Shown one piece after another: positions 15,311 to 56,291 of a stretch of 64,000 nucleotides of DNA. Position 1 is the stretch's first letter, and each line of letters begins with the position of its first letter. The notes under the pieces are model-generated. The model made no database searches and was not told the DNA's origin. It saw only the letters and a list, made by a program, of their open reading frames with translations. Origin of the DNA: Planctomycetota bacterium (lineage in GTDB: Bacteria > Planctomycetota > Phycisphaerae > FEN-1346); contig JAUVZF010000005.1 of assembly GCA_030602705.1 (NCBI GenBank), forward strand, positions 2,663 to 66,662. The letters run 5' to 3'. A program made the position numbers and the translations under genes.

Positions 15311-15907
15311 CTATGCGTCCGGAGGGGAACCGCCGGGCAGGCGGGATACGGCGATGTCTTCGGGAAGGCCCTCGTGGACCCGGTGGACGAGTCCGATGAG
15401 CAGGAGGCCCGTCCCGTCGTCCGGCAGCGTCGCGTCGATCCTCTTGCGTATGTATGCATCGCGCCGCTTCAGCAGGTCGTCGGCCTCCTTCTGACAGGCC
15501 TTGCCGGCGGCCCGTTCCTGAGCGGCTGCGGCGAAGACGTTCCGCATGAGTTCGTATTCTTCGAGGAGGAGTTTCGGCGCCTCGGTTCCGACGAGGGTGG
15601 CTCCCTGGTCGACGAGCCAGAGGATCAACTGGTGGTTCCGGCTGTCGCGGCGCGCCAGGTCGGTGACGATCTGGAGTTCTTTGCCACACACAGGGAGACC
15701 GTCCTGGTAAACGTAGGTGCGCGCGTAATCCAGACCGAAGCCGTCAATGCGTTCCCGCAGGTTGCGCCAGAACTGTTCGATGGTCTCGATGTGTTCTTGC
15801 CACTCGCGCTGAGTGTACCTGGAAAGGAACTCAGCCTTGGCCCCCGGCAGGAGCGAACCCATATCGGCCCCCGTGTGGACGATCGGGACGTGGATCAGTC
15901 TTCTCAC
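15311..15907 (-). CDS. Hypothetical protein (198 aa).
   Basis: ORF with high GC3 and no recognisable motifs. Confidence 0.45.
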   Translation of the reverse strand: MRRLIHVPIVHTGADMGSLLPGAKAEFLSRYTQREWQEHIETIEQFWRNLRERIDGFGLDYARTYVYQDGLPVCGKELQIVTDLARRDSRNHQLILWLVDQGATLVGTEAPKLLLEEYELMRNVFAAAAQERAAGKACQKEADDLLKRRDAYIRKRIDATLPDDGTGLLLIGLVHRVHEGLPEDIAVSRLPGGSPPDA

Positions 15908-15929
15908 GGCTCCTCTTTCGAGGGTGGGT

Positions 15930-16595
15930 TCAGGAAGAGACTTCCACCACCTGGCGCCAGCGGTCGCGCACCCTGCTGCGCACTTCCTCCAACTGCTCGA
16001 CGACGTGGAAGATATCCTTCTCTCTAGTCACCCAGCGTGTCGTCAGCGTCTTGACCGCGCTGCGTAGATGTGTAACGGTGGCCTTCTCTCCTTTATCGAG
16101 CAGCCACCGTAACGAAGTCAGCAGTTCGTGCTCCTGGATTTCGAACTTGCGCAAGACGGCGATGACTTCTCGCTCGCGTTGTTTCTGGCGCGTGAGGATA
16201 TCCTCCCGTATCTTACGCAGGTCGGCAAGGTCGCTCGCCTTGCCGCCGGCAAGAATGCGGCGCAGCCGCATGATCACATCTTCGTCTTCCGCGGCGAAGG
16301 CGTCAAGACGTTCCGAGACCTGCTGTTGGCAACGGGCGCGGGTGTCGGCCAGGTCGCGGATGATGCTGTCGAAGTCGCAGCGGCGCAAACTCTGGCCTTT
16401 GGCCATGTTGCGCTGCAGGAGAGCCAACATGTTCTCCACGTCCTGCTGGTACGATCCGACCAGTTCATAGGCCTGCTTCATCATTTGCGAGATCGTCCTG
16501 ACGCGGACCTCGTAGGCGTCAATGACGCTTTCGGCCAAGTCGCGCAGCATCTGGCCCTTCTCCGCGAGGGGACTGGTTCTGTCGTCCGGCATCAC
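15930..16595 (-). CDS. Hypothetical coiled-coil protein (~221 aa).
   Basis: Start at MPDDRTSPL. The ATGA overlap with the upstream gene's stop suggests translational coupling. Heptad-rich and charged throughout. Confidence 0.5.
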   Translation of the reverse strand: MMPDDRTSPLAEKGQMLRDLAESVIDAYEVRVRTISQMMKQAYELVGSYQQDVENMLALLQRNMAKGQSLRRCDFDSIIRDLADTRARCQQQVSERLDAFAAEDEDVIMRLRRILAGGKASDLADLRKIREDILTRQKQREREVIAVLRKFEIQEHELLTSLRWLLDKGEKATVTHLRSAVKTLTTRWVTREKDIFHVVEQLEEVRSRVRDRWRQVVEVSS

Positions 16596-17554
16596 CGTTT
16601 CCCCTGTTCCACAGCCGGGGCCGACCGATCCGGGCCGCCCCAGCACAGTTCAAGGATTCCATTGCGAAACGTCTGCCGGCAGTTCTCCGGCTCCAGGCCG
16701 GGCGGCAGCGGGACCCTTGCGGGCTTTCCGCCACCGTCGGAGGAGATCTCGACCGCTCCCCCGCAAAACGAGACGCTCACGTCGCGTGCCTCGCCACACG
16801 GCAGGCACGCGAGGATTCGGAAGCCATCCGCCTCATGGAAGGTATCGACCGTGACCTCGGGACGCCGCTGTTCCTGGGTGCGCCGGGCTCCGACGAGCCA
16901 CCAACTGTTGGGGACGTTCCGGCCGGTAAGCGCGTCGGTCCGCGCCGGCACAAAAGTGAGCAGGGGGAAGCCGAGCACGTCCTCCGCGACCGGATTGATG
17001 ACCTCCCTGATCTTCAACAGGACGTCCATCTGCGAGGGTATCCGGGCGTGCTGGGCCAGTTCTCCGACGGTTGCGTGGCGTTGCTGCCAGAGGAACCAGA
17101 CGATGCTCTCGGCGTCGGCATCGAGGTGGGAGGCCAGACGTTCGAGAGCGGCCAGGTCGATCGGCGCTGCCAGGTCGGCCAGTCGTTCCCGCACGGCGTG
17201 CAGGTTGGGCGCTGTCAGCCAAAGGCGCGAACGCTTGTGCTTGGCGTGGCCCGAGCGGTAGTCCAGGCACAGGGCTTCTTTCTTTCGGCCCAGAACGGAG
17301 CGGACGCCCTCAATGCGGAGTCCGGCGATGCGATCGGCGGTCAGGTCGAAGACGGGGCGCCCTCCCTGCGTCAGCGTGATCCCGTTCGGCGTCAGGCGGA
17401 TGCGACACGGCCGCCACCCGGAACGCAGCACGGTTTTGAAGGTTGCCCTGGTCTCGAGGACGGCCTCGCGCGCATCGCAAGCCGCTGCGCGGTCGGTGGC
17501 GACCTTCCGCCTCAGCGGCGCGACGGGCGTTTGGATTCCTGATGCCCTCGTCAT
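16592..17554 (-). CDS. Hypothetical protein with a C-terminal Hsp20/alpha-crystallin-like segment.
   Basis: C-terminus ...FHEADGFRILACLPCGEARDVSVSFCGGAVEISSDG...FRNGILELCW resembles the ACD beta-sandwich ending. The N-terminal domain is unknown. Confidence 0.45.
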   Translation of the reverse strand: MTRASGIQTPVAPLRRKVATDRAAACDAREAVLETRATFKTVLRSGWRPCRIRLTPNGITLTQGGRPVFDLTADRIAGLRIEGVRSVLGRKKEALCLDYRSGHAKHKRSRLWLTAPNLHAVRERLADLAAPIDLAALERLASHLDADAESIVWFLWQQRHATVGELAQHARIPSQMDVLLKIREVINPVAEDVLGFPLLTFVPARTDALTGRNVPNSWWLVGARRTQEQRRPEVTVDTFHEADGFRILACLPCGEARDVSVSFCGGAVEISSDGGGKPARVPLPPGLEPENCRQTFRNGILELCWGGPDRSAPAVEQGKR

Positions 17555-17570
17555 GGCAACGGCCCTCTAC

Positions 17571-17822
17571 CTAGAGTTGATCTTTCTGTGGCGCACGAAT
17601 TAAATACAGATCCATCTGGCGCGAGTATTCGAGGAGCCCGTCGTTCTGCATTCTGGTCAAGTGTTTCTCGAGGCGGTCGCGGGCGGCCAGGATTCTCCCT
17701 CCCCGGATGCCTGCTGCCAGGAGCAGGTCCGCCTCGCGAATCCTCAGTTTGCCGCCGGCACGGTGGACCTGTTCATAGATTCCGCGAGCCACCGGCGGCA
17801 AAGCGGATTTGATTCCGGACAT
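17571..17822 (-). CDS. Small hypothetical protein, possibly wHTH-like. It may be the C-terminal part of a longer gene interrupted by an in-frame TAG at 18012-18014.
   Basis: It is in the same frame as the 18012..18311 ORF. The 190-nt gap between them is open in that frame. Confidence 0.3.
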   Translation of the reverse strand: MSGIKSALPPVARGIYEQVHRAGGKLRIREADLLLAAGIRGGRILAARDRLEKHLTRMQNDGLLEYSRQMDLYLIRAPQKDQL

Positions 17823-18011
17823 CTCATACCCGCCAAGTAGTTTCAGAACCTTCAGGGCATCCGCGTCCTGCTCATCGACCTCGCATTGTTGAGCGGCCTG
17901 CTCCTTGTTCCCGGCAATGGCTTTCGCGTAGAGGTCTCGGTCATGTGGGCGCGAATCGAGGAACTGCGATTCGGCCGACCGGATGGTGGAGTTCAGTTCG
18001 GTGATCTCGTC

Positions 18012-18311
18012 CTACATGGCGCAGATTCTGACGGCCTCCTTGCGTGCTCGCGCAATCCAGGTATTCATGGCTGAGGCGAGTTTGGCCTGGCGGCGTCGTT
18101 CTTCAATGTACATTGGGCCCAGTTCCCGTTGGACGGCCTGCATCGCTTCTTGCCAAGTCGCTTCACGGAGCGCCTTCTCCGCCTCCACGATTTGCGCGTC
18201 CAATTGTGCGAGGGTTTGCTTCATATCGACAGATGTGCTCTCTTTTTGCCCTCTCAGCCTCTCGAACTGCGATTTGCGGTCTGCGACCATGTTAGCGGCT
18301 GTTTTCATCAT
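18012..18311 (-). CDS. Small coiled-coil protein (99 aa).
   Basis: ORF only; lower GC3 than the surrounding cluster. Confidence 0.35.
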   Translation of the reverse strand: MMKTAANMVADRKSQFERLRGQKESTSVDMKQTLAQLDAQIVEAEKALREATWQEAMQAVQRELGPMYIEERRRQAKLASAMNTWIARARKEAVRICAM

Positions 18312-18348
18312 GCGCTCCTTTCGTGGTTGATCATGTCTCAGGTCGGCC

Positions 18349-18930
18349 TCAGCGAATTGAGCCGGAGGTCCTATTCTTGAGTTTCCTCATTGCCCTCTGT
18401 CCTTTGGCAGTCAGGCGACAAGCCCCATCGGCCGCCACGTCGATGAAGTCCTGCCGTCCCAAGGAATTGCAGAGCATCCTGGCATAAGCATTGCTGAGGC
18501 CCATTTTCATTCGAACGGTTCCCACCCTGCCGTGGTCGGCGGCGTCGATGATGATCTCGAGCGCCTCCAGTTCGCTTCCGCCAGGGAGGGCTACGCCGCC
18601 CTGGCGGTCGTGTATGTCGCCGATTTCCCATCCGAAGTCGAAGACCCTGGACTGCTCGTGCTTAAGATCCGCCCGGAGTTCGTTGGCCCCCTCAACCGCG
18701 ACGTTCAGTTCCTCGCGGACCGCCGCGATACTGTCCAGTTGACTGTCTATTTCGTCGGCCAGTCTCCGGCACCCGATGTCCGACGCTTCCAAACCCAAGG
18801 CGTCCAGCCTGGCCTGAAGTTTGCGGACCCTCTCTTGCCCGTATCGGATCGTACTTTGGAGGCCCTCTGCGCGAGTGAGAGCATCTTGCAGTTCGTGCCT
18901 CAACCGAGCAATCCTGTCTTGGGTCTGCAT
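18349..18930 (-). CDS. Coiled-coil protein with a C-terminal wHTH of the cluster-specific family.
   Basis: C-terminal LSNAYARMLCNSLGRQDFIDV matches the recurring x-YA(R/E)-x-(I/L)-C-R-x-L motif. Confidence 0.5.
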   Translation of the reverse strand: MQTQDRIARLRHELQDALTRAEGLQSTIRYGQERVRKLQARLDALGLEASDIGCRRLADEIDSQLDSIAAVREELNVAVEGANELRADLKHEQSRVFDFGWEIGDIHDRQGGVALPGGSELEALEIIIDAADHGRVGTVRMKMGLSNAYARMLCNSLGRQDFIDVAADGACRLTAKGQRAMRKLKNRTSGSIR

Positions 18931-18977
18931 GCAGGGCGACTCCTTTGATCAGGCTGAGTGCAAACTTGGTGCCACAC

Positions 18978-19682
18978 TCACACCTTGCTCACCGAAGAGG
19001 CCACGACTCCCTGGCCGTTGCACGTGAGGCAGTGTTGGCGCATGCGGCGTTTGCCGCGGGCCGTTTTCAGCGTATGCCGCCCCGTGCCATCGCAGTCTTG
19101 ACACATCGCGGGGTTCTTGATCGCCGGGACCTCCCCCGTGCCGCCGCAGGCGAGGCAACTCAGGTTGTCCGTATTGTCCGGCTGTATACCTGTCCCCTTG
19201 CAGAAGGCACACTGTGTCATGCCCCGGCGTTTGGTTTTGCGCATGACTGCGGCACGCGCCCTGGCTATCAGACGTTGGCCGTTGCAGACGAGGCAGCGCT
19301 GCCGCACGGGCCTCTTGCCCTTGGCAGTTCGCTTCATCTGATGCCCGGTTCCATCGCACGCCGGACACTTCACCGGGTCCTCGATCACGGGAACCACGCC
19401 TGTGCCACGACAGGCCAGGCAATGGAGGCGGTCCGTCGTGTTGGGTTGGACGCCGGTTCCGTTGCAGAACACGCAGGGCAGGACAGGCTGGTTCGCGTGG
19501 ATTTCTCCGGTTCCGCCGCACACCTGGCAGTTCGACAGAGCGGAAAGGCAGCCGAAAGGATCTTTGCCGGTGCCCCGGCAGAAAGCGCACTTAATCGTGC
19601 CGGTCGTCGGCTTGGGTTTGGCACGGGTTGCAGTTGCGGGGGTTCGTTTGATCTTCTTCCTTTGCAACTTGGCTTTTCCCAT
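18978..19682 (-). CDS. DnaJ-type zinc-finger repeat protein, with about eight CxxCxGxG units.
   Basis: CAFCRGTGKD...CQVCGGTGE...CVFCNGTGV...CLACRGTGV...CPACDGTGH...CLVCNGQ...CAFCKGTGI...CLACGGTGE...CQDCDGTGR. Basic N-terminus. Confidence 0.7.
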   Translation of the reverse strand: MGKAKLQRKKIKRTPATATRAKPKPTTGTIKCAFCRGTGKDPFGCLSALSNCQVCGGTGEIHANQPVLPCVFCNGTGVQPNTTDRLHCLACRGTGVVPVIEDPVKCPACDGTGHQMKRTAKGKRPVRQRCLVCNGQRLIARARAAVMRKTKRRGMTQCAFCKGTGIQPDNTDNLSCLACGGTGEVPAIKNPAMCQDCDGTGRHTLKTARGKRRMRQHCLTCNGQGVVASSVSKV

Positions 19683-19850
19683 CTTGTTTTCCCCTAACTA
19701 TGGGCAGCGCGCCGGCGGATATCTCTGCGAGTCTGCCGCATCGGCGGCGCAATTGATGCTTGAGTCCTGAATTTGGTCTCCGTCGGGCTATGGGGTCCGC
19801 ACCGTTCGCTTTTCAGTCCGCGTGTGCCATCAGTCAGACAACTTGCTCCT

Positions 19851-20303
19851 CTAGCCCGCCACAACTCCCTGGCCTTTGCAGGTGAGGCAGTACTGACGCA
19901 TGCGTCGCTTGCCACGGAACGTCCGCAATGTATGCCGGCCGGTGCCATCGCAATCCGGGCACTTGACCGAGTCCTTGATGGCGGCGACTTCCCCCGCGCC
20001 GCCACAGACCAGACAGTGAAGGCGGTCTGTGGTGTTGGGCTGCACGCCCGTTCCCTTGCAGAATGCACACATGCGCGTGGGCCCCTTGACAGGGCTCTTT
20101 CCGGTTCCGCCGCAGACCTGACAGTTCGACAGGCGGGAAAGCGAACCGAAACGATCCTTGCCCGTGCCCTCGCAAAAAGCGCACACGCCGTTGCCGACCT
20201 TGCGCTTCGGGGCAACAGTGGTTTTGGGTTCAACCCTTGGGTTGCCCTTCTTCCCCTTCGGTGAACTACCCCCTGCGGTCACTTTTGACTTGGCTCTTGG
20301 CAT
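19851..20303 (-). CDS. DnaJ-type zinc-finger repeat protein, paralog of 18978..19682.
   Basis: CAFCEGTGKD, CQVCGGTGKS, CAFCKGTGVQ, CLVCGGAGE, CPDCDGTGRH. About 70% identical to its neighbour over the repeats. Confidence 0.65.
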   Translation of the reverse strand: MPRAKSKVTAGGSSPKGKKGNPRVEPKTTVAPKRKVGNGVCAFCEGTGKDRFGSLSRLSNCQVCGGTGKSPVKGPTRMCAFCKGTGVQPNTTDRLHCLVCGGAGEVAAIKDSVKCPDCDGTGRHTLRTFRGKRRMRQYCLTCKGQGVVAG

Positions 20304-20494
20304 CTATCGGCCTCCTGTTCTGTTGAGCCCAAATTGCCGGCTATCACAAACAACCAATCCGCCGCGCGCCGCTGCAATTCACGTAAGCGCCGGTTCTCGC
20401 AAGAAGGTGCCCCACCCCTCCTGCAGTGGGCTTTTCGTCAGGCTCCGGACGGTCGGCTCCGGCGCTTCAACCTTCTTTCCCAGAGTGCTGCTGT

Positions 20495-21901
20495 TCAACC
20501 GCCTTCGACGGACAACGGCGCAAACATCTCGTCCATCTCTCCTGCCAAATCGTCCTTGAGACTGCCGAGAACGGTCATGGAATGCGCCTTCCGATACAGG
20601 GAAACCAATTCAAGGTCGTCGTTGATGTTCGGCAGATTGATTATTCCGTGGTCCGGATGGAAGTAACTGTATTCTTCCCAGTTATCCGATCGGAGCCAGC
20701 CATTGCGCTTGCATTTGTCGTACAGATCGGTGCCTGGAAACGGGACGACAATGGAGGCAGTGCTGAACTCGAGGCCGAGGGTCTCGATCAGGTCAATGGT
20801 GGCCTCGATGTCCGCTCTCGTCTCTGTGGGGTAGCCGATCATGAAATTCCCCGTCGGCGTTATTCCAGCGTCGTTTGTCATCTGGACGGCCTTCTTTATC
20901 TGGGAAGGTTTGGTCCTCTTGCCACACTCATCCAGTATTCTCTGGCTGCCGAATTCAATTCCGTAGAATATGACTTGGCAGCCGGCTGCCTTCATTTCTT
21001 CAAGAATATCCTCCGAAACTGTGTCCACGCGGCTATCACAGTTCCAGGCAACCTTCCGGCTCAGGCCTCTTTCGATCATGCCCCGGCAAAGCGAGACGAG
21101 CCACTTCTTGTTCGCCGTGATCAGTTCATCGGTGAAGCGCACGATCCTGATCCCGTACACGTCGGCGATCTCGGCCAGTTCGTCGAGCACATTCTGCACG
21201 GACCTTCGCCGCAGGACCGGCCAGAATCGCGGAACGGAGCAGTAGTCGCAGTGGAAGGGACAACCTCTGCTGGCTGAGACCGCTGTGAACCGCCCCCGGC
21301 TCTTTCCCAACCTGGTCACGTAGAGGTGATTCGGCAACAGATCTCTTGCCGGGAAAGGCAGCGAGTCAAGGTCCTCGATAAACGGACGAGCTGGCGTAAC
21401 CACGACGTGGTCTCCGTCCTTGAACGTGAGTCCTTTCACCTTCTCGAGACTCCCGTCGCCGGAGAGCGCCCGAGCCAGTTCGACGATGGTGATCTCGCCC
21501 TCTCCCCTGACGCAGAAGTCAATGAACGGCTTCTCAATGAGTTCCCTGTGGCAGGGATGGACGTGCGCCCCTCCAAGAACGATCTTTGCTGGAGGATAGG
21601 CCGCCCTTATCTGCCTACAGGCGTCCAGGGCGCTCTTCAAGTTCGAGGTGAAAACGGTAAGGCCGACGAGGTCCGGCTGTGCCTCCGCCACCTGCTGGGC
21701 AAGTCTGTCATGGGGCATCCCGATTGATTTTGCATCCACGATCTCAACCCCGGCCCCCTGTGCCCTCAGTGCCGAGGCGAGATAAGCCAGCCCGATGGGC
21801 GGGAACTTCGAGCCGGTCCGGACCGCTTGCCGGATCACCTTTTCTTTGGTGATGTTGACCGAACGTCGTAGCGGGTCAACAAGAACGCACTTGAGGGTCA
21901 T
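20495..21901 (-). CDS. B12-binding-domain radical SAM protein.
   Basis: N-terminal cobalamin-binding Rossmann region (IGLAYLASALRAQGAGVEIVD...LVGLTVFT) followed by the radical-SAM cysteine triad SRGCPFHCDYCSVP. Confidence 0.85.
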   Translation of the reverse strand: MTLKCVLVDPLRRSVNITKEKVIRQAVRTGSKFPPIGLAYLASALRAQGAGVEIVDAKSIGMPHDRLAQQVAEAQPDLVGLTVFTSNLKSALDACRQIRAAYPPAKIVLGGAHVHPCHRELIEKPFIDFCVRGEGEITIVELARALSGDGSLEKVKGLTFKDGDHVVVTPARPFIEDLDSLPFPARDLLPNHLYVTRLGKSRGRFTAVSASRGCPFHCDYCSVPRFWPVLRRRSVQNVLDELAEIADVYGIRIVRFTDELITANKKWLVSLCRGMIERGLSRKVAWNCDSRVDTVSEDILEEMKAAGCQVIFYGIEFGSQRILDECGKRTKPSQIKKAVQMTNDAGITPTGNFMIGYPTETRADIEATIDLIETLGLEFSTASIVVPFPGTDLYDKCKRNGWLRSDNWEEYSYFHPDHGIINLPNINDDLELVSLYRKAHSMTVLGSLKDDLAGEMDEMFAPLSVEGG

Positions 21902-22080
21902 GTAGTAGTTTCCCCTTCTTCGTTCTCGGTTTCGCCTTTTTCGCCCTGCTCCTCCGGACTCGGTTCACGCTCGTCGCCGCGCGTTTCCTTGGACCCACCA
22001 AACATGCCGCCCACCATGTCGGTGATCTTGTTTGCCGTGTCGCTAACGACTCTGACCACACGCGTAACTGTGTCCATCAT
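21898..22080 (-). CDS. 60-aa peptide with a hydrophobic N-terminal half and a highly acidic C-terminal half, start-overlapping the downstream radical-SAM gene. Candidate substrate or partner peptide.
   Basis: MMDTVTRVVRVVSDTANKITDMVGGMFGGSKETRGDEREPSPEEQGEKGETENEEGETTT. Its stop overlaps the radical-SAM start. Confidence 0.35.
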   Translation of the reverse strand: MMDTVTRVVRVVSDTANKITDMVGGMFGGSKETRGDEREPSPEEQGEKGETENEEGETTT

Positions 22081-22092
22081 TGGTTCACTCCT

Positions 22093-22374
22093 TTACTGTT
22101 GTGATCGCTCCAGTTCCAACAAGAACTGCTCACCCTTCTCGGTAATCTCGTAGCCGGTTACGGTCGTTCCCCTTATATAGTCGCCCCTCCATAAAGACCG
22201 GCAAAGGATGGCGGCATACTTCGTTGAGAACCCCATCTCGGTGCCCACGGCCTCGGCCTTCACCTTTCCCAACTCATCCGCTTTCCCCAGTTCACGGATC
22301 AGTTTGAGCGCCTCTCGTTCGCTGGCCACGATTGATGCCATGTTCATGCCCTCCGAGGCCTTGGGGGCAGACAC
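22093..22374 (-). CDS. Small wHTH protein of the cluster family. Start is probably an internal Met near 22341.
   Basis: MGFSTKYAAILCRSLWRGDYIRG motif. Confidence 0.5.
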   Translation of the reverse strand: MSAPKASEGMNMASIVASEREALKLIRELGKADELGKVKAEAVGTEMGFSTKYAAILCRSLWRGDYIRGTTVTGYEITEKGEQFLLELERSQQ

Positions 22375-22408
22375 GCGAGAAACCGATTCCCGGCCGCGTC
22401 GATCAGGT

Positions 22409-22669
22409 TCATGATGCCGGCCCCGCTGTTCCAGAGAGAAGACGGTATTGGCATTTTTTTCTTTGCTTCACCGCGTCGTCTACCAGTTTGAGTATCGCAT
22501 CCTCATCTCGGCGGCGCCCCTCCTGTGCAATCCGGTTATACTTGGCGAGGGCTTCTCTGGCGCGGCCGGCCACAAGCAGTCTGCCCGCCTCCGAATAGAG
22601 CCCGACCATTCGAGCCCAGATTTCGGCAGCCGTCTCGGTCCGTCCTTCTTCAGCACCCTTCACGGTCAT
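22409..22669 (-). CDS. Small hypothetical, helical or TPR-like protein (86 aa).
   Basis: ORF only. Confidence 0.3.
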   Translation of the reverse strand: MTVKGAEEGRTETAAEIWARMVGLYSEAGRLLVAGRAREALAKYNRIAQEGRRRDEDAILKLVDDAVKQRKKCQYRLLSGTAGPAS

Positions 22670-23487: not shown

Positions 23488-23867
23488 GCTCCGTCTGCCG
23501 ACGGGGCGTTACGCTCTCCCCGCCTTGGGTTCCTCTTGCGAAGATGCGCGACAAGGTCCCTCCCCTCCCGGCGAATCCACTTGATTTCCGACCTGGACCT
23601 GCCTCGTATCTCATGGATGTCGTCCTTGCATCGTGCGCGGAGTTCCTTTACGGCTTCTCGTCTCTGTTGCTTGTTCACCTCGCACAGCGCCTTACGTGCC
23701 TCACGGCCCGCTTGCCAGTCCTGCATCCAGGTCGCGACGTCGCCACGACGGTACCGGCGTTCATCCGCCGCGGTCCGTCGGGTCTTGCGGTTTGACTCAC
23801 TGAGTCGCTGGCGTAACTCTTGGCAGTCGTGCCGCCGGGCGCCCGCATTGAAAGCGCTTACCCCCAT
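23484..23867 (-). CDS. Hypothetical basic protein (127 aa).
   Basis: ORF only; highly Arg-rich. Confidence 0.35.
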   Translation of the reverse strand: MGVSAFNAGARRHDCQELRQRLSESNRKTRRTAADERRYRRGDVATWMQDWQAGREARKALCEVNKQQRREAVKELRARCKDDIHEIRGRSRSEIKWIRREGRDLVAHLRKRNPRRGERNAPSADGA

Positions 23868-23875
23868 GGATCACT

Positions 23876-25933: not shown

Positions 25934-25949
25934 CGATCCATCTCCTCGG

Positions 25950-47419: not shown

Positions 47420-47535
47420 GACGACTTTCCTGTTGCTCTCCCGCCGCTCGCCCGGTAGGCGCACGCCGCGGATGGGTATGCCGGCGCCGTCGCTTGCGTT
47501 CCTCGAGCCCGCCGCCTCAGGAGACCGGCAGTAAC

Positions 47536-48563: not shown

Positions 48564-49469
48564 TTAACAATGCTTCTCGATCAGTGTGATGAGCCCTTTT
48601 TCCAGGCCGGGATCGGCATCTCCGTCCCCCCCGCCCGCGAGCACGTCGAGACACGTTTGCCGGAATGCCACGTCGGAAGCCGACATTCTCATGCCGTTCG
48701 TGCTCACGAGTCTGGCGATCATGATGCTGGCCCGGACGGTGGGAACCGTGCCGGTGTCCGTTTCCCTGGCGCCGCGCACAACGTCCACGATGGCGCGGGC
48801 CGTCTCGTTCGCCACGCCGCCCTTGGCGGCGGCGATGGCGATCTCGCTGTCGCGATCGTAGTGGCCGAGCCGGATGGTGATCATGCGGTCCAGCAGCGCA
48901 TCCTGTGCCCTGTGGATCCCGGCGTACTCCTCGGGGTTGCTGGTGAAGATGGCGCAGAACTCCGGTGCCACGCGCAGGTACCCGTCCTCTCCCCGGGCGG
49001 CCGGCAGGTCGAGAATCTTCTCCTCCAGGATGGGCAGCAGGACGTTGTTGGCCTCGGCCTTCGAGCGTGTGAACTCGTCGTAGAGCAGCGTGTAGCCGTT
49101 TTTGCAGGCCGCGGTCACGCGGTTGTCGACCCATTCGGGCGAGACGCTCTCTTCCGACTTGAGGACCGTGTGGATGAAGTTATCGACGAGTTTCTTTCGC
49201 CGGTATCCGTACTGGCCGCCGATCAGGTCCGAGGTGCCGAACTCCTCGTCGCCGTGGATCAGCATCACGGGGCGGCCGATCTGGCCCGCGACGTACATGG
49301 CGATCGTCGTTTTGCCCGTGCCGGCCGGCCCGCTCAGATGGACGGGGAAGCCTGCCGCCAAGTACCTCATGGCCCGTTCCACCACGTTCTGCACCGCGGG
49401 CGTGACGACGAAGCCGGGCTGCTCCTTGTCGATGAGGATCGGTGAGACCTCTGAATGTGTTGCGGTCAT
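48564..49469 (-). CDS. gvpN: Gas vesicle AAA+ ATPase GvpN (CbbQ/NirQ/MoxR-like).
   Basis: FPVHLSGPAGTGKTTIAMYVAGQIGRPVMLIHGDEEF...LLYDEFTRS...AIFTSNPEEY. Start at MTATHSEV after GGAGG. Confidence 0.85.
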   Translation of the reverse strand: MTATHSEVSPILIDKEQPGFVVTPAVQNVVERAMRYLAAGFPVHLSGPAGTGKTTIAMYVAGQIGRPVMLIHGDEEFGTSDLIGGQYGYRRKKLVDNFIHTVLKSEESVSPEWVDNRVTAACKNGYTLLYDEFTRSKAEANNVLLPILEEKILDLPAARGEDGYLRVAPEFCAIFTSNPEEYAGIHRAQDALLDRMITIRLGHYDRDSEIAIAAAKGGVANETARAIVDVVRGARETDTGTVPTVRASIMIARLVSTNGMRMSASDVAFRQTCLDVLAGGGDGDADPGLEKGLITLIEKHC

Positions 49470-49594
49470 GGTCTGCCTCCGGGTCTGGAGAGGCGCCTTC
49501 CTCGGGAAGCCAGGCGAACCGCCGGTGCCATCTCTATGGTTTTGATGGGGCACATGTGCGGGTCCCCGAACGGCTTCCGAGGAAGGCTCCCTCT

Positions 49595-50515
49595 CTAATG
49601 ACAGGGCTCACAACGGATGTTCTCCAGTGCAGGGTCGGCGCTGACCATGTACACGATGGCCGGCGCCTGCCCGGTTCGTTCCAGCCTGCGTCGTCTGACC
49701 TCTTCCCAGGGCTCGACGCCCGTGGCGATGCCGCCGTCGCTCATGTCTCTGTGGCCGACGACGCGGCCGACCCGGCGGAGCGCATTGTGCAAGGCCTGGG
49801 GTGTGCGGCCGTGGGTGCGCAGGGCTGCCTGGAGGCGGTCCACAATGGATTCGCGTCGCGATGCCTCGTAGCGCGCACCCTCCAGCGGCACGCAGTCCGT
49901 CAGGTGGAGGCCGGCGTCCACGCTGGCCCGGAACAGGACCGGGCGTCCAGCCCGGTTCTTGCGTCTCAGCCGCCTTTCGTCCCAAGGCTCGAATACGATG
50001 TGACACCCGTCCGAGTCCCAGTGGACGTGGTCGACCTCGCCCACAGGGCGTATCGACTCGGCGAGGAGGTCCGCGGCACGGGCGGGGCGTTCTTCGGGCG
50101 GCAGTTCGCTAAGACGGGGCCCGAAGGCGGACAGCGCCTCCTGAAGCGAACCGCTCAGGCGCGCCGCCCGCCCCAGCGCAAGGGCCCTCATTCTCTTCTT
50201 CCTCTCGTTTCCCTGCTGGTACTCGGCCGCCTCTCGTTCAAGCCGGGCCACCCGCTGTCTTGCGAGCCTTGTCCCGAGCGTTCCCCTGGCCCTCGCCCAT
50301 TCCCGCGCCATGATCTTTCGGGCAAGGCGGTTCAGGCCGGATGCGGAAAGGCTCTTCGGCTTTTTCTTCTTGCGGAAGGCGGCGCCGGCGGGCGTTGCGG
50401 GCAGTTCCCTCCACCCGGCGGAATCCGGCTCGGAGGGCCACAAAGGGGCCAATTTCTTCGCAGGATCGCCGCCCTTCTTGAAGGCAATCGTGGAACCCGA
50501 CGGTCCATCGGTCAT
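49595..50515 (-). CDS. Hypothetical protein (306 aa).
   Basis: ORF with high GC3 and no recognisable motif. Confidence 0.45.
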   Translation of the reverse strand: MTDGPSGSTIAFKKGGDPAKKLAPLWPSEPDSAGWRELPATPAGAAFRKKKKPKSLSASGLNRLARKIMAREWARARGTLGTRLARQRVARLEREAAEYQQGNERKKRMRALALGRAARLSGSLQEALSAFGPRLSELPPEERPARAADLLAESIRPVGEVDHVHWDSDGCHIVFEPWDERRLRRKNRAGRPVLFRASVDAGLHLTDCVPLEGARYEASRRESIVDRLQAALRTHGRTPQALHNALRRVGRVVGHRDMSDGGIATGVEPWEEVRRRRLERTGQAPAIVYMVSADPALENIRCEPCH

Positions 50516-50529
50516 GCCAGGTCCTTTCC

Positions 50530-50868
50530 TCAGTATGGCAGGTCCATCTTCTTCATGGATCGGGGGAGTTTCTTGGCTTTGCCGGCACCCGGCTTAGGCG
50601 TCCCATGCGCGTTTGCGGGCAATTGGGCCTCGAGCACCTGGCCCAGTTTTTGCTGGATCCTCTGCATGTCTTTCAGCATAAGTTTTTGATCCAGGGCGAC
50701 GAACTCCTTGCGGGTCTCCATGTTTTCACATTCGCGTTCGTGGCGTTCCTGCCTCTTCTGCTGAAGGTACATGTCGAGGAACTCTTGCCCGACTTGCTTG
50801 GGCATAGCCCGCAGTCGCATCTTCTGCGAGGTCCTCAGGTTGTTGATCCCCGTCATTTTCTGTTGCAC
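50530..50868 (-). CDS. Hypothetical coiled-coil protein (112 aa).
   Basis: ORF only. Confidence 0.4.
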   Translation of the reverse strand: MQQKMTGINNLRTSQKMRLRAMPKQVGQEFLDMYLQQKRQERHERECENMETRKEFVALDQKLMLKDMQRIQQKLGQVLEAQLPANAHGTPKPGAGKAKKLPRSMKKMDLPY

Positions 50869-50882
50869 GAGGGGCCTCCCTT

Positions 50883-51059
50883 CTATCTCAGCCGGCCCTT
50901 CTTGCGTGCGTGAACGGTGATGAACCGGCCCGGCCCGGGGCCGCAGGCCTTGATCTCGACGGTGGCTCCGGGCTTGAGGCCCGTCTCGCGCGCGATGTTC
51001 TTGGCGATTCGGATCTTGCCTTCTTCGTCCACCTTCGCGAACGCTCTCATCAGCGCCAT
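50883..51059 (-). CDS. Unlisted small AbrB/SpoVT/MazE-like protein (58 aa), MALMRAFAKVDEEGKIRIAKNIARETGLKPGATVEIKACGPGPGRFITVHARKKGRLR.
   Basis: Hand-translated. The KVDEEGKIRI swapped-hairpin motif is paralogous to the N-terminus of 34646..35101. Sits 3 nt downstream of gvpN-2. Confidence 0.45.
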   Translation of the reverse strand: MALMRAFAKVDEEGKIRIAKNIARETGLKPGATVEIKACGPGPGRFITVHARKKGRLR

Positions 51060-51062: not shown

Positions 51063-52088
51063 TTACTCTCCTTCCGTTGCGCCCGCCATTTCGAGGACAG
51101 GCTGCTCAGACTCAGGCCCGAGGCCGGGCTGTTGCGGCTCGGGCGGCCCTTCGGCCGGCATCGGCCGCGAGGCGCAGTGCTTGTCGATCAGATTCGAGAT
51201 CACCTCCGCCGCCCTGGAGTGGTGCGCGCGGTCGCCCACGCGGCTGGTCTCGGAGGACAGGATGTCGATGCAGGTCTGCCTGAAGACGGTGTTGTCGCGG
51301 GCGACGACGCCCTTGCGAATCCTGAGCGTCTTGGCAATCATCATGGCGCCGCGCACCGTCGGGGCGAACTCGATCGCGTCGGACTCGCGCAGGGCGCGCA
51401 CGATCCGCACGATGCTCGTGGCGTCGGCCTCGGACAGGCCCGACTTGGCCACCGTAATCTGGATCTCGGTCTCCTCGTCGTAGTGGTCCAGGTCGAGGGT
51501 GATCATGCGGTCCCTGAGGGCGTCCTGGCTGCGGTGGACGCCGGCGTATTCCTCCGGGTTGCTGGTGAAGATGGCGGTGAAGTCCGGGTCGACCCGCAGG
51601 TAGTTCCCGTCACCCTCGCGTGCGGCGGGCAGGTCCATCATGCGTTCCTGGAGGACCGAGAGCAGGACGTTGTTGGCTTCGGGCCGCGAGCGCGTGAACT
51701 CGTCGTAGATGAGCGTAAAGCCGTGCTTGCAGGCGACCGTCAGGCGGTTGTCCACCCAGCGGCGCTGCATGTCCTCTTCGGTCTTCAGGACCGAGTGGAT
51801 GAAGTTGTCCACGACCTTTCGGATGCGGTACCCGTACTCGCCGCCCACCAGGTCGGAGGTCGAGAACTCCTCGTCGCCGTGGATCATCACGACCGGCCGG
51901 CCGATCTTGGCCGCAACGTGCATCGCCAGCGTGGTCTTGCCGGTGCCGGAGACGCCCCGGAAGTGAATGGGGAACCCGGCAGCGACGTACCCGAGTGCCC
52001 GCGCCGTGATGTCCTTGACCGCCTTGGTCTCGACGAAGTTCGGCAAGGGGCGCGGTTCCAGAACCGTCGTCATCTCCTCGATTGGCAT
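51063..52088 (-). CDS. gvpN: Gas vesicle AAA+ ATPase GvpN (second paralog).
   Basis: FPIHFRGVSGTGKTTLAMHVAAKIGRPVVMIHGDEEF...LIYDEFTRS...AIFTSNPEEY. Confidence 0.85.
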   Translation of the reverse strand: MPIEEMTTVLEPRPLPNFVETKAVKDITARALGYVAAGFPIHFRGVSGTGKTTLAMHVAAKIGRPVVMIHGDEEFSTSDLVGGEYGYRIRKVVDNFIHSVLKTEEDMQRRWVDNRLTVACKHGFTLIYDEFTRSRPEANNVLLSVLQERMMDLPAAREGDGNYLRVDPDFTAIFTSNPEEYAGVHRSQDALRDRMITLDLDHYDEETEIQITVAKSGLSEADATSIVRIVRALRESDAIEFAPTVRGAMMIAKTLRIRKGVVARDNTVFRQTCIDILSSETSRVGDRAHHSRAAEVISNLIDKHCASRPMPAEGPPEPQQPGLGPESEQPVLEMAGATEGE

Positions 52089-52891: not shown

Positions 52892-54088
52892 CTACGCGAA
52901 ATAGACCGAACCTTCCTTCTCCACCTTGCCTTCCTCAACCAGTTCCCGGGCAACGGGAAGGAGGTCGCGCCAACTCTCGAAGCCCAACCGCTCGGCCACG
53001 GCGGCCAGTTTCATGCCGTCTTCGCTCCCGGCGATCAGGGCCAGGACCTTCCGTTTCAACTCAGCGGGTGAAGGCCCTTCCTTGGCGCCTTTGGCAGGCT
53101 TGGGCTTCGCGGGCGCCGGCCTGCCGTCGCCGCCGTGGACATGTCTCATCTTCGCGAGCAGGTCCTGCCACGCCGCCGCCGTCTCGGCACGGTCCGCAGC
53201 AGCCTCTGCCTTGAGTTCGACGTTCTCTTTGTGGAATTGGTCCAGAAGGCCCGCCACCTCCTGTGCACGCGCCTTGTCCTGTTCGGCCGCCTCGGCGATC
53301 AGTGCGGTGTTCTGCTGCGCGAGATCCTTGACCGTGGCGTCAGCCTCCGCCCTGATATCAAGATTCTCCTGATGGAACTGGGTGACCAGTTCCGTCATCT
53401 CCTGGGCCCTGGCCTTGTCCTCCTCGGCGGCCTCAGCCTTCAGGGCGACGTTCTGCTGCGCGAGGTCCTTGACGGTCGCGTCAGCCTCCGCCTTCAGGTC
53501 CACGTTCTCTTTGTGGAATTGGGTGACCAGTTCCGTCATCTCTTGTGCCCGCGCCTTGTCCCCCTCGGCGGCCTCAGCCTTCAGGGCGACGTTCTGTTGG
53601 GCGAGGTCCTTGACCGTGGCGTCAGCCTCCGCCTTCAGGTCCACGTTCTCTTTGTGGAATTGGTCCACAAGACCCGCCATCTCCTGTGCCCGCGCCTTGT
53701 CCTCTTCGGCGGCCTCGGCGATCAGGGCGGCGTTCTGCTGCGCGAGATCCTTGACCGTGGTGTCAGCCTCCGCCCTGATATCAAGATTCTCCTGATGGAA
53801 CTGGGTGACCAGTTCCGCCATCTCCTGCGTCCGCGCCTTGTCTTCCTCGGCGGCCTCGGCGATCAAGGCGACGTTCTGCTGCGCGAGATCCTTGACCGTG
53901 GCGTCAGCCTCCGCCTTCAGGTCGACGTTCTCTTTGTGGAATTGGTTCAGAAGGTCCGCCACCTCCTGCCTCCTGGCCTTGCTCTCCTCGGCGGCTTCGG
54001 CGATAATGCGCGGCACGTCCTGCTTGCGCTGCGTGTGACAGGCAGCCATCTCCTCGGCCAGGCTCTTTAGATCCGTTGCGTTCGACAT
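52892..54088 (-). CDS. GvpC-like repeat protein (about seven 45-aa repeats) with a C-terminal wHTH-like domain, directly downstream of gvpA.
   Basis: Repeats of AEAAEEDKARAQEM(A/T)ELVTQFH(K/Q)ENVDLKAEADATVKDLAQQNVAL(I/K), with matching 135-bp DNA periodicity at 53150-54050. Start taken at MSNATDL after GGAGGA. Confidence 0.6.
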   Translation of the reverse strand: MSNATDLKSLAEEMAACHTQRKQDVPRIIAEAAEESKARRQEVADLLNQFHKENVDLKAEADATVKDLAQQNVALIAEAAEEDKARTQEMAELVTQFHQENLDIRAEADTTVKDLAQQNAALIAEAAEEDKARAQEMAGLVDQFHKENVDLKAEADATVKDLAQQNVALKAEAAEGDKARAQEMTELVTQFHKENVDLKAEADATVKDLAQQNVALKAEAAEEDKARAQEMTELVTQFHQENLDIRAEADATVKDLAQQNTALIAEAAEQDKARAQEVAGLLDQFHKENVELKAEAAADRAETAAAWQDLLAKMRHVHGGDGRPAPAKPKPAKGAKEGPSPAELKRKVLALIAGSEDGMKLAAVAERLGFESWRDLLPVARELVEEGKVEKEGSVYFA

Positions 54089-54254
54089 TGCCTGTTCCTC
54101 CATCCTGCATCGACTTGACGTTACTGACTCAGGAGAGGGGTGCCCGTTACACGCCTCTTCGCAAAGACTCCAGGCTGCGCCCGAACCGCCTGCCTTGCAT
54201 CGGCCGGTGCAGGAGGGCCCGTGTCGGACGCTCCTACCGCTCGGGGGCAACCCA

Positions 54255-54924: not shown

Positions 54925-54950
54925 CCTTCTGTGTGTGTGTGGGGGGGTGT
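54925..54950. repeat. (GT)5 followed by a G7 homopolymer, CTGTGTGTGTGTGGGGGGGTG, in the gvpA leader.
   Basis: Read from the sequence. A simple-sequence tract with slipped-strand potential. Confidence 0.5.
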
Positions 54951-55059
54951 GCGTCGCGGCCGCGCGTGGGGGACGCGGCCGCGACGACGTGGGGTCCAAC
55001 GCGTGCAGGCCGTTGGTCATGTCGATGCGGGCTCCAGTGCTCATTGCTGATTCCAGAAG

Positions 55060-55078
55060 GGGCAAACGCCGTGCCATC
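55060..55078 (-). promoter_or_regulatory. Consensus sigma-54 (-24/-12) promoter, TGGCAC-GGCGT-TTGC, oriented toward gvpA.
   Basis: Plus-strand GCAAACGCCGTGCCA at 55062-55076 is the reverse complement of TGGCACGGCGTTTGC. A sigma-54 activator gene sits immediately upstream. Confidence 0.5.
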
Positions 55079-55247
55079 GGGAGCGAGCGCGTCGCGGCGC
55101 CAAGCATGCGGCCATATCAGTATTGGCAGAGGCGATGCGCGACGATGGCCGTTCGCGCGGCAGGAGCGGAAGCACCTGCGGTTGTGGAGAGCGTTCCCCA
55201 TAGTTGCGGAATCCATTCCATAGGCGGCAGGGGCTGCCCATCCGGCG

Positions 55248-56291
55248 TTATGCCCGAGAGATGCCGTAATCCCTTGCCTTGGTGAGGAGGGTTTTGTAGT
55301 CGATCCGGAGGAGCCGAGCGGCCTTGGCCTTGTTTCCGCCGGTCCGCCTGAGGACCTCGGCGAGGATCTGCCGTTCGACGCGGGCCACGACTCGCCGCAC
55401 GACTTCCTTGAAGGAAGCGCTGCCCCCGATCACCTCGTTGATGTCGGGCGGCGCGGCATCGGCCTCCAGGGGCGCCCCGGAGATGTCCAGGTGGTCGGGT
55501 TCGATGCGGGTATCGGCCATGAGGACGCCCCGGCGGACGACGTTGCGGAGTTCGCGGACGTTGCCCGGCCACGGGTAGTTCAGGAGCCGCTCGATGGCGG
55601 CCTCGGAGAGCCCGCGGACGTCCTTTTCGAGTTCGCGGTTCGTCAGTTCGACAAACCGGTTCGCTAGTGGGATGATGTCGGCCCGGCGCCGGCGCAGCGG
55701 CGGCACCTCGATGTGGAACTCGTTCAGGCGGTGATACAGGTCGCGGCGAAAGCCGTCGGCCCGAACGAGCGAGCCGACATCGCGATTGGTGGCGGCGATG
55801 ACGCGGATGTCCACCTCGATGCCGTCTGTGCTGCCGACGCGCCAGATGCGCCTCTCCTGGAGCGCGCGGAGGAGCCTTGGCTGGAGGTCAAGGGGCAGGT
55901 TCGAGACCTCATCGAGGAAGAGCGTCCCGCCGGAGGCCAGTTCGAACTTGCCCGGCCGTGCCCGGTCCGCCCCCGTAAAGGCGCCCTTCTCGTGCCCGAA
56001 CAGTTCGCTCTCGATGAGGGTCTCGGGTATCGAGCCGCAGTCCACCGCGATGAACGGCGCCGAGGCGCGGCGGCTGATGCGGTGAATCGCCCGGGCGACG
56101 ACTTCCTTTCCGGCGCCGGTCTCGCCGGTGATGAGCACCGTAAAGGACGTGGGGGCCACCCGCTCGACGGTCGCGAAGACCGCCTGCATCGCCTCGCTTG
56201 ATCCGATGACGTCGCGCGTGGAGATGCCGCTGTCCAGGCAGGGGGCTTCTGCGACGTTCTCCTGGATGGTGCCGCTCGTTGCCGTAGTCAT
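55248..56291 (-). CDS. Sigma-54-dependent transcriptional activator, PspF-like (AAA+ domain plus C-terminal HTH, no receiver or sensor domain).
   Basis: [33 protein letters not shown] (GAFTGA motif), and C-terminal [22 protein letters not shown]. Start taken at MTTATSGT; the upstream part of the listed ORF is probably non-coding. Confidence 0.85.

Follow-up and report, generated by a model that had tools for sequence, protein, structure and literature searches.

A chaperone- and ATPase-rich gas-vesicle gene cluster in a Planctomycetota bacterium, and the recurrence of its accessory genes across phyla

Introduction

A stretch of 64,000 nucleotides (nt) from a Planctomycetota bacterium (Phycisphaerae; FEN-1346; GenBank assembly GCA_030602705.1, contig JAUVZF010000005.1, positions 2,663 to 66,662), hereafter the window, to which positions refer unless a locus is named, carries a large gas-vesicle (gvp) gene cluster on its minus strand. 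Sequence comparison supports the locus as a gas-vesicle cluster in which many of the non-canonical genes are conserved members rather than random neighbours, and it is, on balance, probable that the locus represents a widespread, essentially undescribed "chaperone-assisted" type of gvp biogenesis cluster with a dedicated proteostasis module. The recurrent accessory set that is supported by this comparison comprises Cdc48-like and ArsA/Get3-like ATPases, an Hsp70 together with a J-domain, zinc-finger/winged-helix proteins, Hsp20 proteins, a 198-amino-acid (aa) protein (u198) and a 452-aa B12-binding radical SAM enzyme (rSAM452) paired with a tetratricopeptide repeat (TPR) protein.

How the very hydrophobic shell protein GvpA is kept soluble and inserted into the growing gas-filled shell is a long-standing open question, and one that restricts the design of acoustic reporters based on gas vesicles. 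The link between GvpL/F, a J-domain and Hsp70 described here makes this old question directly testable, and further client-handling steps are suggested by the Cdc48-like unfoldase and the Get3-like ATPases that these clusters also encode. In addition, the B12-rSAM/TPR pair and a protein built of PYKPVPLK-type repeats suggest that shell or coat proteins may be modified. Helper sets of this kind might raise the yield of gas vesicles in heterologous hosts, while a probable mobile-element context would help to explain the patchy distribution of gvp genes across phyla.

Chaperones and ATPases associated with the gas-vesicle core

The accessory genes appear to be physically linked with the gas-vesicle core because of a series of gene fusions, in which GvpL/F is joined to a J-domain-like tail (GvpL/F-J), GvpJ to a zinc ribbon and DnaJ-type zinc fingers to winged helices. 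The FHPD motif of the J-like tail is invariant in five GvpL/F-J orthologs, and the ortholog in locus L002 gives a strong match to PF00226 (comparison loci are designated by L numbers where they need to be told apart). An alignment scan of GTDB species representatives with GvpL/F-J returned ten loci from metagenome-assembled genomes (MAGs), belonging to Actinomycetota, Planctomycetota (DG_23, Pirellulales, Sedimentisphaerales), Aerophobetes, Chloroflexota (including Ktedonobacteraceae) and Verrucomicrobiota, and an HPD-containing J-like tail is present at or beside GvpL/F in all ten. The occurrence of the fusion in at least five phyla, often with a cluster-encoded Hsp70, leads to the hypothesis that Hsp70 may transfer or remodel the shell protein at GvpL/F.

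The Hsp70 of the cluster is full length, with PF00012 covering positions 1–591 of 599, and since it scores below both DnaK equivalog cut-offs it would not be the housekeeping DnaK. Its orthologs lie inside five independent gvp clusters (L002, L004, L006, L007 and L010). A Cdc48-like double-ring ATPase, 60–68% identical to that of the window, is located directly upstream of GvpL/F-J in eight of the GTDB loci (L009–L012, L014–L016 and L018), representing five phyla.

The two tandem ArsA ATPases carry the P-loop, the DTAPTGH signature and the CxxC zinc motif that together characterise Get3-like proteins. For the C-terminal half of the second enzyme (ArsA2) the best solved relatives are Chlamydomonas ARSA1 and archaeal Get3 homologs, which rank above Escherichia coli ArsA, and its CAFC aligns with the CEFC (CxxC) of the archaeal Get3 structure 3zq6; in each of the three remaining ArsA halves, inspection by eye shows a C-x-F-C motif. 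Genes of an ars operon (arsB/arsD/arsR) were not found among the window open reading frames (ORFs) scanned.

The array ends with a 320-aa protein (u320), whose C-terminus is an Hsp20-like domain according to NCBIfam, a coiled-coil protein and u198. The latter has no match in Pfam, NCBIfam or PDB sequences, and a fold search places it in the TIKI/TraB/ChaN/erythromycin-esterase superfamily. Four residues, H11, E77, R149 and H175, do not vary among 49 homologs of u198 and would be candidates for a catalytic His/Glu/Arg/His constellation. The identity of u198 is 34–65% across distant loci and 92% in L004. As a separate observation, the N-terminal part of u320 (gene at 16592–17554) resembles by eye the 157-aa ORF at 27305–27778 (u157); both are possibly PH/GRAM-like, and no family match was obtained for either.

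Recurrence in related and distant clusters

A search with ArsA2 yielded a 100% match on a 77-kb contig present in NCBI and Logan and orthologs at 61–87% identity, after which identity drops to 44%; a scan of GTDB species-representative contigs with ArsA2 alone found no relative, so that the source genome itself is probably not among these representatives. The close relatives L004, L005 and L001 encode proteins 50–96% identical to those of the window (75–96% in L004) and have one long gene order in common. It runs through GvpN2, winged helix, Hsp20, Cdc48, GvpL/F-J, GvpF, GvpG, double zinc ribbon and GvpO, continues with zinc finger/winged helix, ArsA, winged helix, ArsA, GvpG-like protein and a 151-aa ORF (u151), and closes with zinc finger/winged helix, GvpJ, GvpK, GvpF/L, GvpM and Hsp70.

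Locus L002 (JGI 3300009034, ca. 20 kb) is more distant, its proteins other than GvpA being 31–75% identical to those of the window, and nevertheless consists of the same gene families in nearly identical order: gvpA, repeat protein, zinc finger, GvpN, zinc finger, GvpN, GvpL/F-J, GvpF, GvpG, double zinc ribbon and GvpO, followed by ArsA, GvpG-like protein, GvpJ, GvpK, GvpF/L, GvpM, Hsp20-like protein, Hsp70, Hsp20 and u198. On the other hand, it is half the size, with no detectable Cdc48, a single ArsA and no rSAM/TPR pair, and it lacks stand-alone winged-helix genes, the matches to the 85-aa and 93-aa winged-helix queries (wH85, wH93) falling in the C-terminus of a zinc-finger protein.

Within the range fetched for the ten GTDB loci, ArsA is present in four, u198 in five and Hsp70 in one. 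The Actinomycetota locus L009 contains two ArsA genes with winged-helix paralogs between them. In L006, rSAM452 (81% identical) and the TPR protein follow Hsp70 as a trio with u157, and the rSAM and TPR genes are also found in a Desulfobacterales gvp cluster (L007/L008; rSAM 63% identical). Between the rSAM and TPR genes of that cluster lies an actin-like protein (L007/L008, 11397–12479; Pfam Volactin), a family without a match in any window ORF. Judged by sequence, GvpL/F-J with Hsp70, the zinc-finger/winged-helix proteins, the B12-rSAM and TPR pair and the PYK-repeat protein thus recur in metagenomes of several phyla. The cluster of the window is the largest copy met among the clusters compared.

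Extent and gene content of the cluster

Raw ORF lists are noisy because the G+C content of the window is 60–70%; minus-strand ORFs were consequently tiled by third-position GC (GC3) and then inspected manually. This gave 55 ORFs on the minus strand, each 58 aa or longer, between 15311 and 56291, from the stop of u198 to the likely start of the sigma-54 activator, with 91% of the DNA coding and no plus-strand gene required to fill the interval. An original prediction, made from the letters alone, had placed a continuous minus-strand array of about 60 genes here; tiling gave the same coordinates and strand and an unbroken array, and lowered the number to 55. The 54 gene junctions comprise 37 of no more than 50 nt, 11 of 51–120 nt and six of more than 120 nt. 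The claim that most gaps measure 0–50 nt is therefore sound, that of many ATGA overlaps slightly generous: there are 11 overlaps among the 37 short junctions, and six of these are 4-nt overlaps.

Family assignments were made by Pfam and NCBIfam searches on the cluster ORFs, and they bear out the earlier family calls almost one for one. The complete canonical gvp set is present. Residues 1–65 of GvpA align with the solved Anabaena flos-aquae GvpA 8gbs (E 2e-29) and also with 7r1c; two further PF00741 proteins are GvpJ/M-like, and GvpF/L, G, J/M, K, N and O all have Pfam matches above cut-off. The two gvpN copies are 72–75% identical at the DNA level over three stretches (repeat families D4, D6 and D9). 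The order gvpF, gvpG, double zinc ribbon, gvpO is kept in L001, L002, L004 and L005. Canonical genes occupy ca. 16–20% of the DNA, so that their predicted share of less than one third is correct. Support for a proposed GvpG-like fusion is weak (E 1e-3), and this gene and the adjoining u151 have copies 72–80% identical in L004 and L005. The coordinates of all features are collected in Table 1.

Table 1. Features of the gas-vesicle cluster and its surroundings, ordered from the start of the minus-strand array to its end, followed by plus-strand genes and repeat arms
Feature	Position	Strand	Basis
Sigma-54 activator, AAA+ and Fis-type helix-turn-helix (HTH)	55248..56291	-	Sigma54_activat 8.6e-70, HTH_8; start taken at M58
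Sigma-54 -24/-12-like site TGGCACGGCGTTTGCC, between activator and gvpA	55061..55076	-	one consensus mismatch, correct strand
gvpA, major shell protein, 68 aa	54282..54488	-	PF00741 2e-16
Coiled-coil protein, ca. six 47-aa (141-nt) repeats, gvpC position	52892..54103	-	repeat family D2
DnaJ-type CXXCXGXG zinc-finger protein, 195 aa	52201..52788	-	PF00684 8e-11
gvpN copy 1 (AAA+)	51063..52088	-	TIGR02640 347 bits vs cut-off 267
Three ORFs, 58, 112 and 306 aa, no family assignment	49595..51059	-	no Pfam match
gvpN copy 2	48564..49553	-	AAA_5 1e-16
Winged-helix family protein, 116 aa	48201..48551	-	local HMM 4e-22
Hsp20/GvpH-like small heat-shock protein, 196 aa	47536..48126	-	PF00011, ArsA_HSP20
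Cdc48-like double-ring AAA+ ATPase	45227..47464	-	CDC48_N, CDC48_2, two AAA domains
GvpL/F with C-terminal J-domain-like tail (FHPD)	44208..45227	-	PF06386 1.5e-54
gvpF, gvpG, double zinc-ribbon protein, gvpO	42620..44205	-	Pfam
DnaJ zinc finger and C-terminal winged helix fusion, 307 aa	41579..42502	-	PF00684; winged-helix HMM 8.5e-21
Tandem ArsA/Get3-like ATPase 1	39263..41560	-	PF02374 8e-128
59-aa ORF and three winged-helix proteins (85, 142, 109 aa)	37933..39161	-	local HMM
Tandem ArsA/Get3-like ATPase 2	35877..37928	-	PF02374 8e-127
Weak GvpG-like 256-aa protein and 151-aa ORF (u151)	34646..35880	-	GvpG 1e-3
Two paralogous small ORFs (83, 92 aa) flanking PYKPVPLK/DYTPVPLK-repeat protein	32740..34556	-	repeat families D1, D13
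Winged helix-DnaJ zinc finger-winged helix protein, 351 aa	31591..32646	-	PF00684, winged-helix HMM
gvpJ-like (with zinc ribbon), gvpK, gvpF/L, gvpM-like	29620..31634	-	Pfam
Hsp70, cluster-encoded	27852..29687	-	PF00012 2e-174
157-aa ORF (u157), B12-binding radical SAM enzyme (452 aa), TPR protein with Cys-rich C-terminal domain	25019..27778	-	Pfam
14-gene segment seen only in the window	17571..24991	-	family calls by Pfam and winged-helix HMM
Perfect sigma-54 consensus TGGCACCAAGTTTGCA in internal intergenic gap	18959..18974	-	pattern scan
Last three genes: 320-aa protein with Hsp20-like C-terminus, 238-aa coiled-coil protein, u198 (198 aa)	15311..17554	-	
Prim-Pol, HTH protein, large serine recombinase	58675..62379	+	Pfam
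Left arm, perfect 20-nt inverted repeat	15174..15193		repeat search
Right arm of inverted repeat, inside serine recombinase 3' end	62312..62331		repeat search

The coiled-coil repeat protein next to gvpA had been described as GvpC-like. Its repeats are evident and a specific Pfam family is not: there is no Gas_vesicle_C (PF01304) match at E <= 0.01, only six weak Pfam matches of coiled-coil or low-complexity type, none with a significant stretch. Its position and its repeats make it a GvpC analog, not a homolog; a homolog of the protein itself, 31% identical, adjoins gvpA in L002. The PYK-repeat protein (33061–33753) consists of ca. 22 eight-residue repeats and a C-terminal zinc ribbon, and a near-identical protein with the same zinc ribbon is encoded directly upstream of the rSAM gene in the Desulfobacterales MAG L007 (9168–9938). 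It may be a substrate or a coat protein. Among the ORFs without a family assignment, that of 306 aa has homologs 31–36% identical in L002 and L009. The 58-aa ORF (50883–51059) and u151 (34646–35101) share the N-terminal motif M(A)LMRAF(A/S)KVD(E/D)(E/D)G(K/R)I, which by eye resembles an AbrB/SpoVT-type domain, with no Pfam match for either.

Zinc-finger, winged-helix and radical SAM proteins

Six proteins of the cluster contain a DnaJ_CXXCXGXG zinc finger according to Pfam. A domain of ca. 70 aa, detected with a local hidden Markov model (HMM), occurs 12 times, distributed over 11 proteins that are all encoded on the cluster's minus strand, in agreement with the prediction of twelve or more winged-helix paralogs. 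Its AlphaFold model (predicted local distance difference test, pLDDT, 94) has the order H-beta-H-H-beta-beta and gives Foldseek template modelling (TM) scores of 0.8–0.89 to MarR/DtxR structures, and the sequence profile matches the winged helices of CheF and MarR in PDB. The model thus identifies the domain as a MarR/DtxR-like winged helix, for which DNA binding is a prediction. The family is rare, with 625 of 1.84 billion cluster representatives at E <= 1e-3, some of which are again fused to DnaJ zinc fingers.

Both B12-rSAM enzymes combine PF02310 with PF04055 and display the CX3CX2C motifs CPYCCAFC and CPFHCDYC. They score below every NCBIfam equivalog cut-off, the nearest models being HpnJ, BchE and ApyD, an enzyme of ribosomally synthesised and post-translationally modified peptides (RiPPs). 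An Rfam scan gave no match of any kind, and thus no cobalamin riboswitch near the rSAM genes.

Relation to described gas-vesicle clusters

Several of the accessory components have precedents. Two-domain ArsA proteins of ca. 600–700 aa have been described among gvpN/L/F/G/J/K/M and hsp20 genes, without arsB or arsR, in Polaribacter, Pelodictyon, Anabaena/Nostoc, a deltaproteobacterium and an acidobacterium, and were proposed to energise a step of biogenesis (Castillo and Saier, 2010, PMC2963123). The window differs from these clusters in having two such ATPases, a Get3-like CxxC in each half and a much larger chaperone context.

The type known from Serratia sp. ATCC 39006 and Burkholderia is organised as a gvpA1 operon and a gvrA-gvpH-gvpZ-gvpF2-gvpF3 operon, in which GvrA is an NtrC-type sigma-54 activator that works through a -24/-12 promoter ahead of gvpA1 (Tashiro et al., 2016, PMC4982088). 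Serratia itself can do without gvpZ and gvpH, but in E. coli the signal fell or disappeared when they were deleted (PMC4982088, PMC10344784), which fits a helper role. The Burkholderia locus L025 (GCA_001522845.1) encodes, in this order, a u198 homolog, a sigma-54 activator, GvpH/Hsp20, a Cdc48-like ATPase and two GvpF, with identities to the window proteins of 49% (u198), 53% (activator), 35% (Hsp20), 58% (Cdc48-like) and ca. 31% (GvpF); the order Hsp20, Cdc48, GvpL/F-J, GvpF of the window is that of L025. Since this locus already contains an activator, a small heat-shock protein, a Cdc48-like ATPase and u198, none of the four is new to gvp clusters. The original prediction, which had listed its extra genes as absent from textbook gvp clusters, was accordingly wrong for ArsA, the sigma-54 activator and the Cdc48-like ATPase, and it overstated the novelty of several components.

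The Serratia/Burkholderia type and the window have gvpA, N, F, G, K and J-type genes in common, together with the sigma-54 activator with its -24/-12 promoter and GvpH/Hsp20. The Burkholderia activator homolog carries a receiver domain, whereas that of the window does not: no Response_reg match was obtained, and ca. 28 residues precede its AAA+ domain. To this type the window adds Hsp70, the J-domain on GvpL/F, two ArsA, six zinc-finger proteins, 12 winged-helix domains, two rSAM enzymes, a second GvpN and GvpO, all in a single 41-kb same-strand array. Pfam scans of the 55 ORFs gave no match for gvrB/gvrC, gvpV/W/X/Y, GvpC (PF01304) or a response regulator. Within the literature searchable here, no report was found that joins Hsp70/DnaK, J-domains, Cdc48 or radical SAM enzymes to gvp clusters, or that deals with zinc-finger/winged-helix proteins, the B12-rSAM and TPR pair or the PYKPVPLK-repeat protein in such clusters.

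In L025, a locus of a cultivated genus, the gene just ahead of the gvrA-like activator is the u198 homolog (10001–10603). This homolog may be the counterpart of Ser39006_001280, which has no annotation and whose deletion improved the gas-vesicle signal in E. coli (PMC10344784).

Mosaic structure

The array is not homogeneous. Its 14-gene segment at 17571–24991 encodes five winged-helix proteins, three DnaJ zinc-finger proteins, the second B12-rSAM enzyme (468 aa) and five small ORFs. In L004, homologs of the last three genes of the array (91–95% identical) begin 168 nt after Hsp70, and in L006 Hsp70 is followed by u157, rSAM452, TPR, homologs of u320 and the coiled-coil protein, an extra Hsp20, a response regulator and u198; from these gene orders the segment has no detectable counterpart in either. 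Six further small genes, namely the PYK-repeat protein, its two flanking paralogs, two winged-helix genes and the 59-aa ORF, also lack a detectable counterpart in L004, absence being judged in relatives whose contigs cover the positions concerned. The paralogs flanking the PYK-repeat gene have weak matches in L001, L002 and L005, and the 59-aa ORF and the 85-aa and 142-aa winged-helix proteins have no detectable counterpart in L001, L004 or L005.

Composition follows the same division: GC3 is 0.81 for the 32 genes in common with L004 and 0.86 for the left flanking chromosomal genes, against 0.70 for the 14-gene segment and likewise 0.70 for the six other window-only genes. Some of the window-only genes find their best matches, at 38–48%, in the Actinomycetota cluster L009. 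Being paralogs of cluster families with such best matches, they are read as modules that may derive from other gvp clusters, and not as unrelated DNA; on sequence grounds they clearly do not belong to the conserved core, and the segment at 17571–24991 is kept as a putative lineage-specific acquisition. In contrast, the notion that u157, rSAM452 and TPR form an unrelated insertion is ruled out, as the trio follows Hsp70 in L006 and the rSAM and TPR genes occur in L007.

The suggestion that the extra genes are functionally coupled to the gvp core is supported for the recurrent accessory set and overstated for about one fifth of the array, which is lineage-specific and compositionally distinct. 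Comparison of synteny led to the same partition, with many non-canonical genes recurring in gvp clusters and 17571–24991 not. Insertions of foreign codon usage, missing from close relatives, had been named as what would speak against such coupling; the segment does differ in codon usage and is absent from close relatives, but it is composed of paralogs of cluster families.

Regulation

Two intergenic sigma-54 sites are of interest by position. The site TGGCACGGCGTTTGCC lies ca. 570 nt upstream of the gvpA start, and the perfect consensus TGGCACCAAGTTTGCA precedes a coiled-coil/winged-helix gene inside the 14-gene segment, which suggests a putative internal promoter at 18959–18974. With this site and six gaps of more than 120 nt inside the array, the co-transcription that the original prediction had argued from short gaps and overlaps is a possibility only. 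Position is the sole argument for both sites, because the count of the pattern across the window is that expected by chance (26 observed, 25.5 expected). Scans for sigma-70 promoters and intrinsic terminators were at or below chance level and give no operon boundaries.

Proposed function and alternative explanations

If the locus is a chaperone-assisted gvp cluster, the following sequence of events may be envisaged. The sigma-54 activator would drive gvpA and the genes downstream from a -24/-12 promoter, and a dedicated proteostasis module would keep the hydrophobic, aggregation-prone GvpA and GvpJ/M proteins assembly-competent. The J-domain on GvpL/F would bring the cluster Hsp70 to where assembly takes place; holdase or adaptor roles would fall to the DnaJ-type zinc-finger proteins, several with a winged-helix fusion, and the two Get3-like tandem ArsA ATPases would shield and deliver hydrophobic segments. 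Shell growth would be powered by the two GvpN ATPases, with the Cdc48-like unfoldase and small heat-shock proteins clearing misassembled or collapsed material. A TIKI/TraB fold makes u198 a candidate processing hydrolase. For the B12-rSAM/TPR pair, C-methylation of a shell or coat protein is a candidate role, with the PYK-repeat protein as a possible substrate. The combination of a CxxC-zinc, hydrophobic-groove ATPase with a client-localising J-domain resembles Get3/TRC40 and Hsp70/J-protein delivery, as an analogy of mechanism only; unlike in Get3/TRC40, no membrane receptor is evident and the client would be a protein shell, not a lipid bilayer. A more far-reaching version, in which many uncultivated anaerobes possess a self-contained client-delivery machine (J-domain/Hsp70, adaptors, Get3-like ATPases, recycling by Cdc48), with rSAM methylation and an organelle that moves between phyla on a serine-integrase element, is put forward tentatively and has to be regarded as doubtful.

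A number of points weigh against a dedicated proteostasis module. The proposed functions depend on fusions, homology and conserved linkage. The DnaJ match of the J-like tail in the window itself is 1.4e-3, or 19 bits against a cut-off of 27.8, and the Pfam scan of the 55 ORFs gave no match to a GrpE-type nucleotide exchange factor. The winged-helix proteins may simply be DNA-binding regulators, and from gene order the Cdc48-like ATPase would be the equivalent of gvpZ. Furthermore, the close relative L004 has neither the rSAM genes nor five of the winged-helix and three of the zinc-finger proteins, so these genes are not needed by every such cluster.

One alternative expands on the regulatory possibility: the 11 winged-helix proteins and the zinc-finger proteins would be transcription factors or anti-factors, not chaperone adaptors, and would form a multi-input circuit with internal sigma-54 promoters that sets the time at which gas vesicles are produced and the variants chosen. 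The MarR/DtxR-type fold and the perfect sigma-54 consensus inside the array are in line with this, as is the fact that DnaJ-like zinc fingers of the Anti-TRAP type regulate through protein binding, weak Anti-TRAP matches having been seen here. Against it, the proteins are single domains of 70 aa that have none of the dimerisation helices seen in MarR/DtxR, several carry a fused zinc finger of chaperone type, the rare family is met again inside the gvp cluster L009, and eleven regulators in one operon are without precedent; we regard this explanation as unlikely. Less likely still is that only the canonical gvp genes act and the remainder is stress or defence cargo of a mobile element, linked by adjacency. 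The locus does lie on a probable mobile element with a defence-like HEPN-motif ORF and a DNA methylase next door, and the 7.4-kb segment and six small genes found only in the window, of lower GC3, are missing in L004; yet Cdc48, ArsA, Hsp70, the zinc-finger proteins, Hsp20 and u198 hold their places across phyla at 30–70% identity, beyond what linkage alone would give, the accessory genes are interleaved among the gvp genes rather than appended to them, and the J-domain is covalently joined to GvpL/F. A decayed or non-functional locus, swollen by duplication and junk or produced by misassembly of a metagenomic contig, is highly improbable: although the source is apparently a metagenome-assembled contig in which small ORFs without annotation and genes rich in repeats are numerous, none of the 55 ORFs is disrupted and coding density is 91%, independent contigs from other samples reproduce the order of long stretches at 88–95% DNA identity, and GvpA is highly conserved, with 65 residues aligning to the solved Anabaena protein.

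Probable mobile-element context

A Prim-Pol gene, a helix-turn-helix gene and a large serine recombinase with Resolvase, Recombinase and zinc-ribbon domains lie beyond the start of the array, the recombinase at the right end of a putative element. A perfect 20-nt inverted repeat, written inside to outside as CTATCAGACGAGTGAACGTA, encloses the gvp cluster, the Prim-Pol gene and the recombinase. Homology between the window and L004, ca. 95% from the u198 stop, extends through the left arm and 8 nt beyond and then ends abruptly; L020, found in a metagenome scan for the arm, is 93% identical from the recombinase 3' end through the right arm and 5 nt beyond, and then diverges. Three other contigs match over ca. 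85–90 nt including the left arm only and have no gvp homologs on the inner side, from which it appears that a module of ca. 90 nt around the arm travels with different cargo. A perfect 20-nt repeat arose in two of 200 Markov-1 simulations, and chance as its origin is ruled out by the simulation together with the breakpoints at both arms.

The joined ends would give X-TCCTCGCC-rcX, with a predicted circular junction CTATCAGACGAGTGAACGTA-TCCTCGCC-TACGTTCACTCGTCTGATAG. A palindrome of this form is the kind of site expected for the attP of a serine integrase. Because of this attP-like junction, the arms and the breakpoints, the gvp cluster is probably cargo of a serine-recombinase element of ca. 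47 kb, belonging to a family of elements with exchangeable cargo. An alternative to integration would be a 47-kb invertible segment. A tRNA scan found no tRNA integration site.

The left arm and the GTG start of a gene annotated as Phage_capsid_4 overlap in four metagenomic contigs (arm regions of L019, L021, L023 and L024; L004 20838–21251), and in L004 a Phage_cement_2 gene comes next after it. Outside the left arm of the window, a 944-aa N6/N4 DNA methylase, preceded by an ORF with an R-x4-H motif (RNSIVH) that is fused in frame to the left arm, occupies 11770–15165 on the minus strand, and a small serine resolvase (9505–10173) and a helix-turn-helix protein (8354–9346) lie in a stretch of lower GC (0.58–0.60). 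This flank, at 8354–15165, looks like a defence or mobile island adjoining the gvp element.

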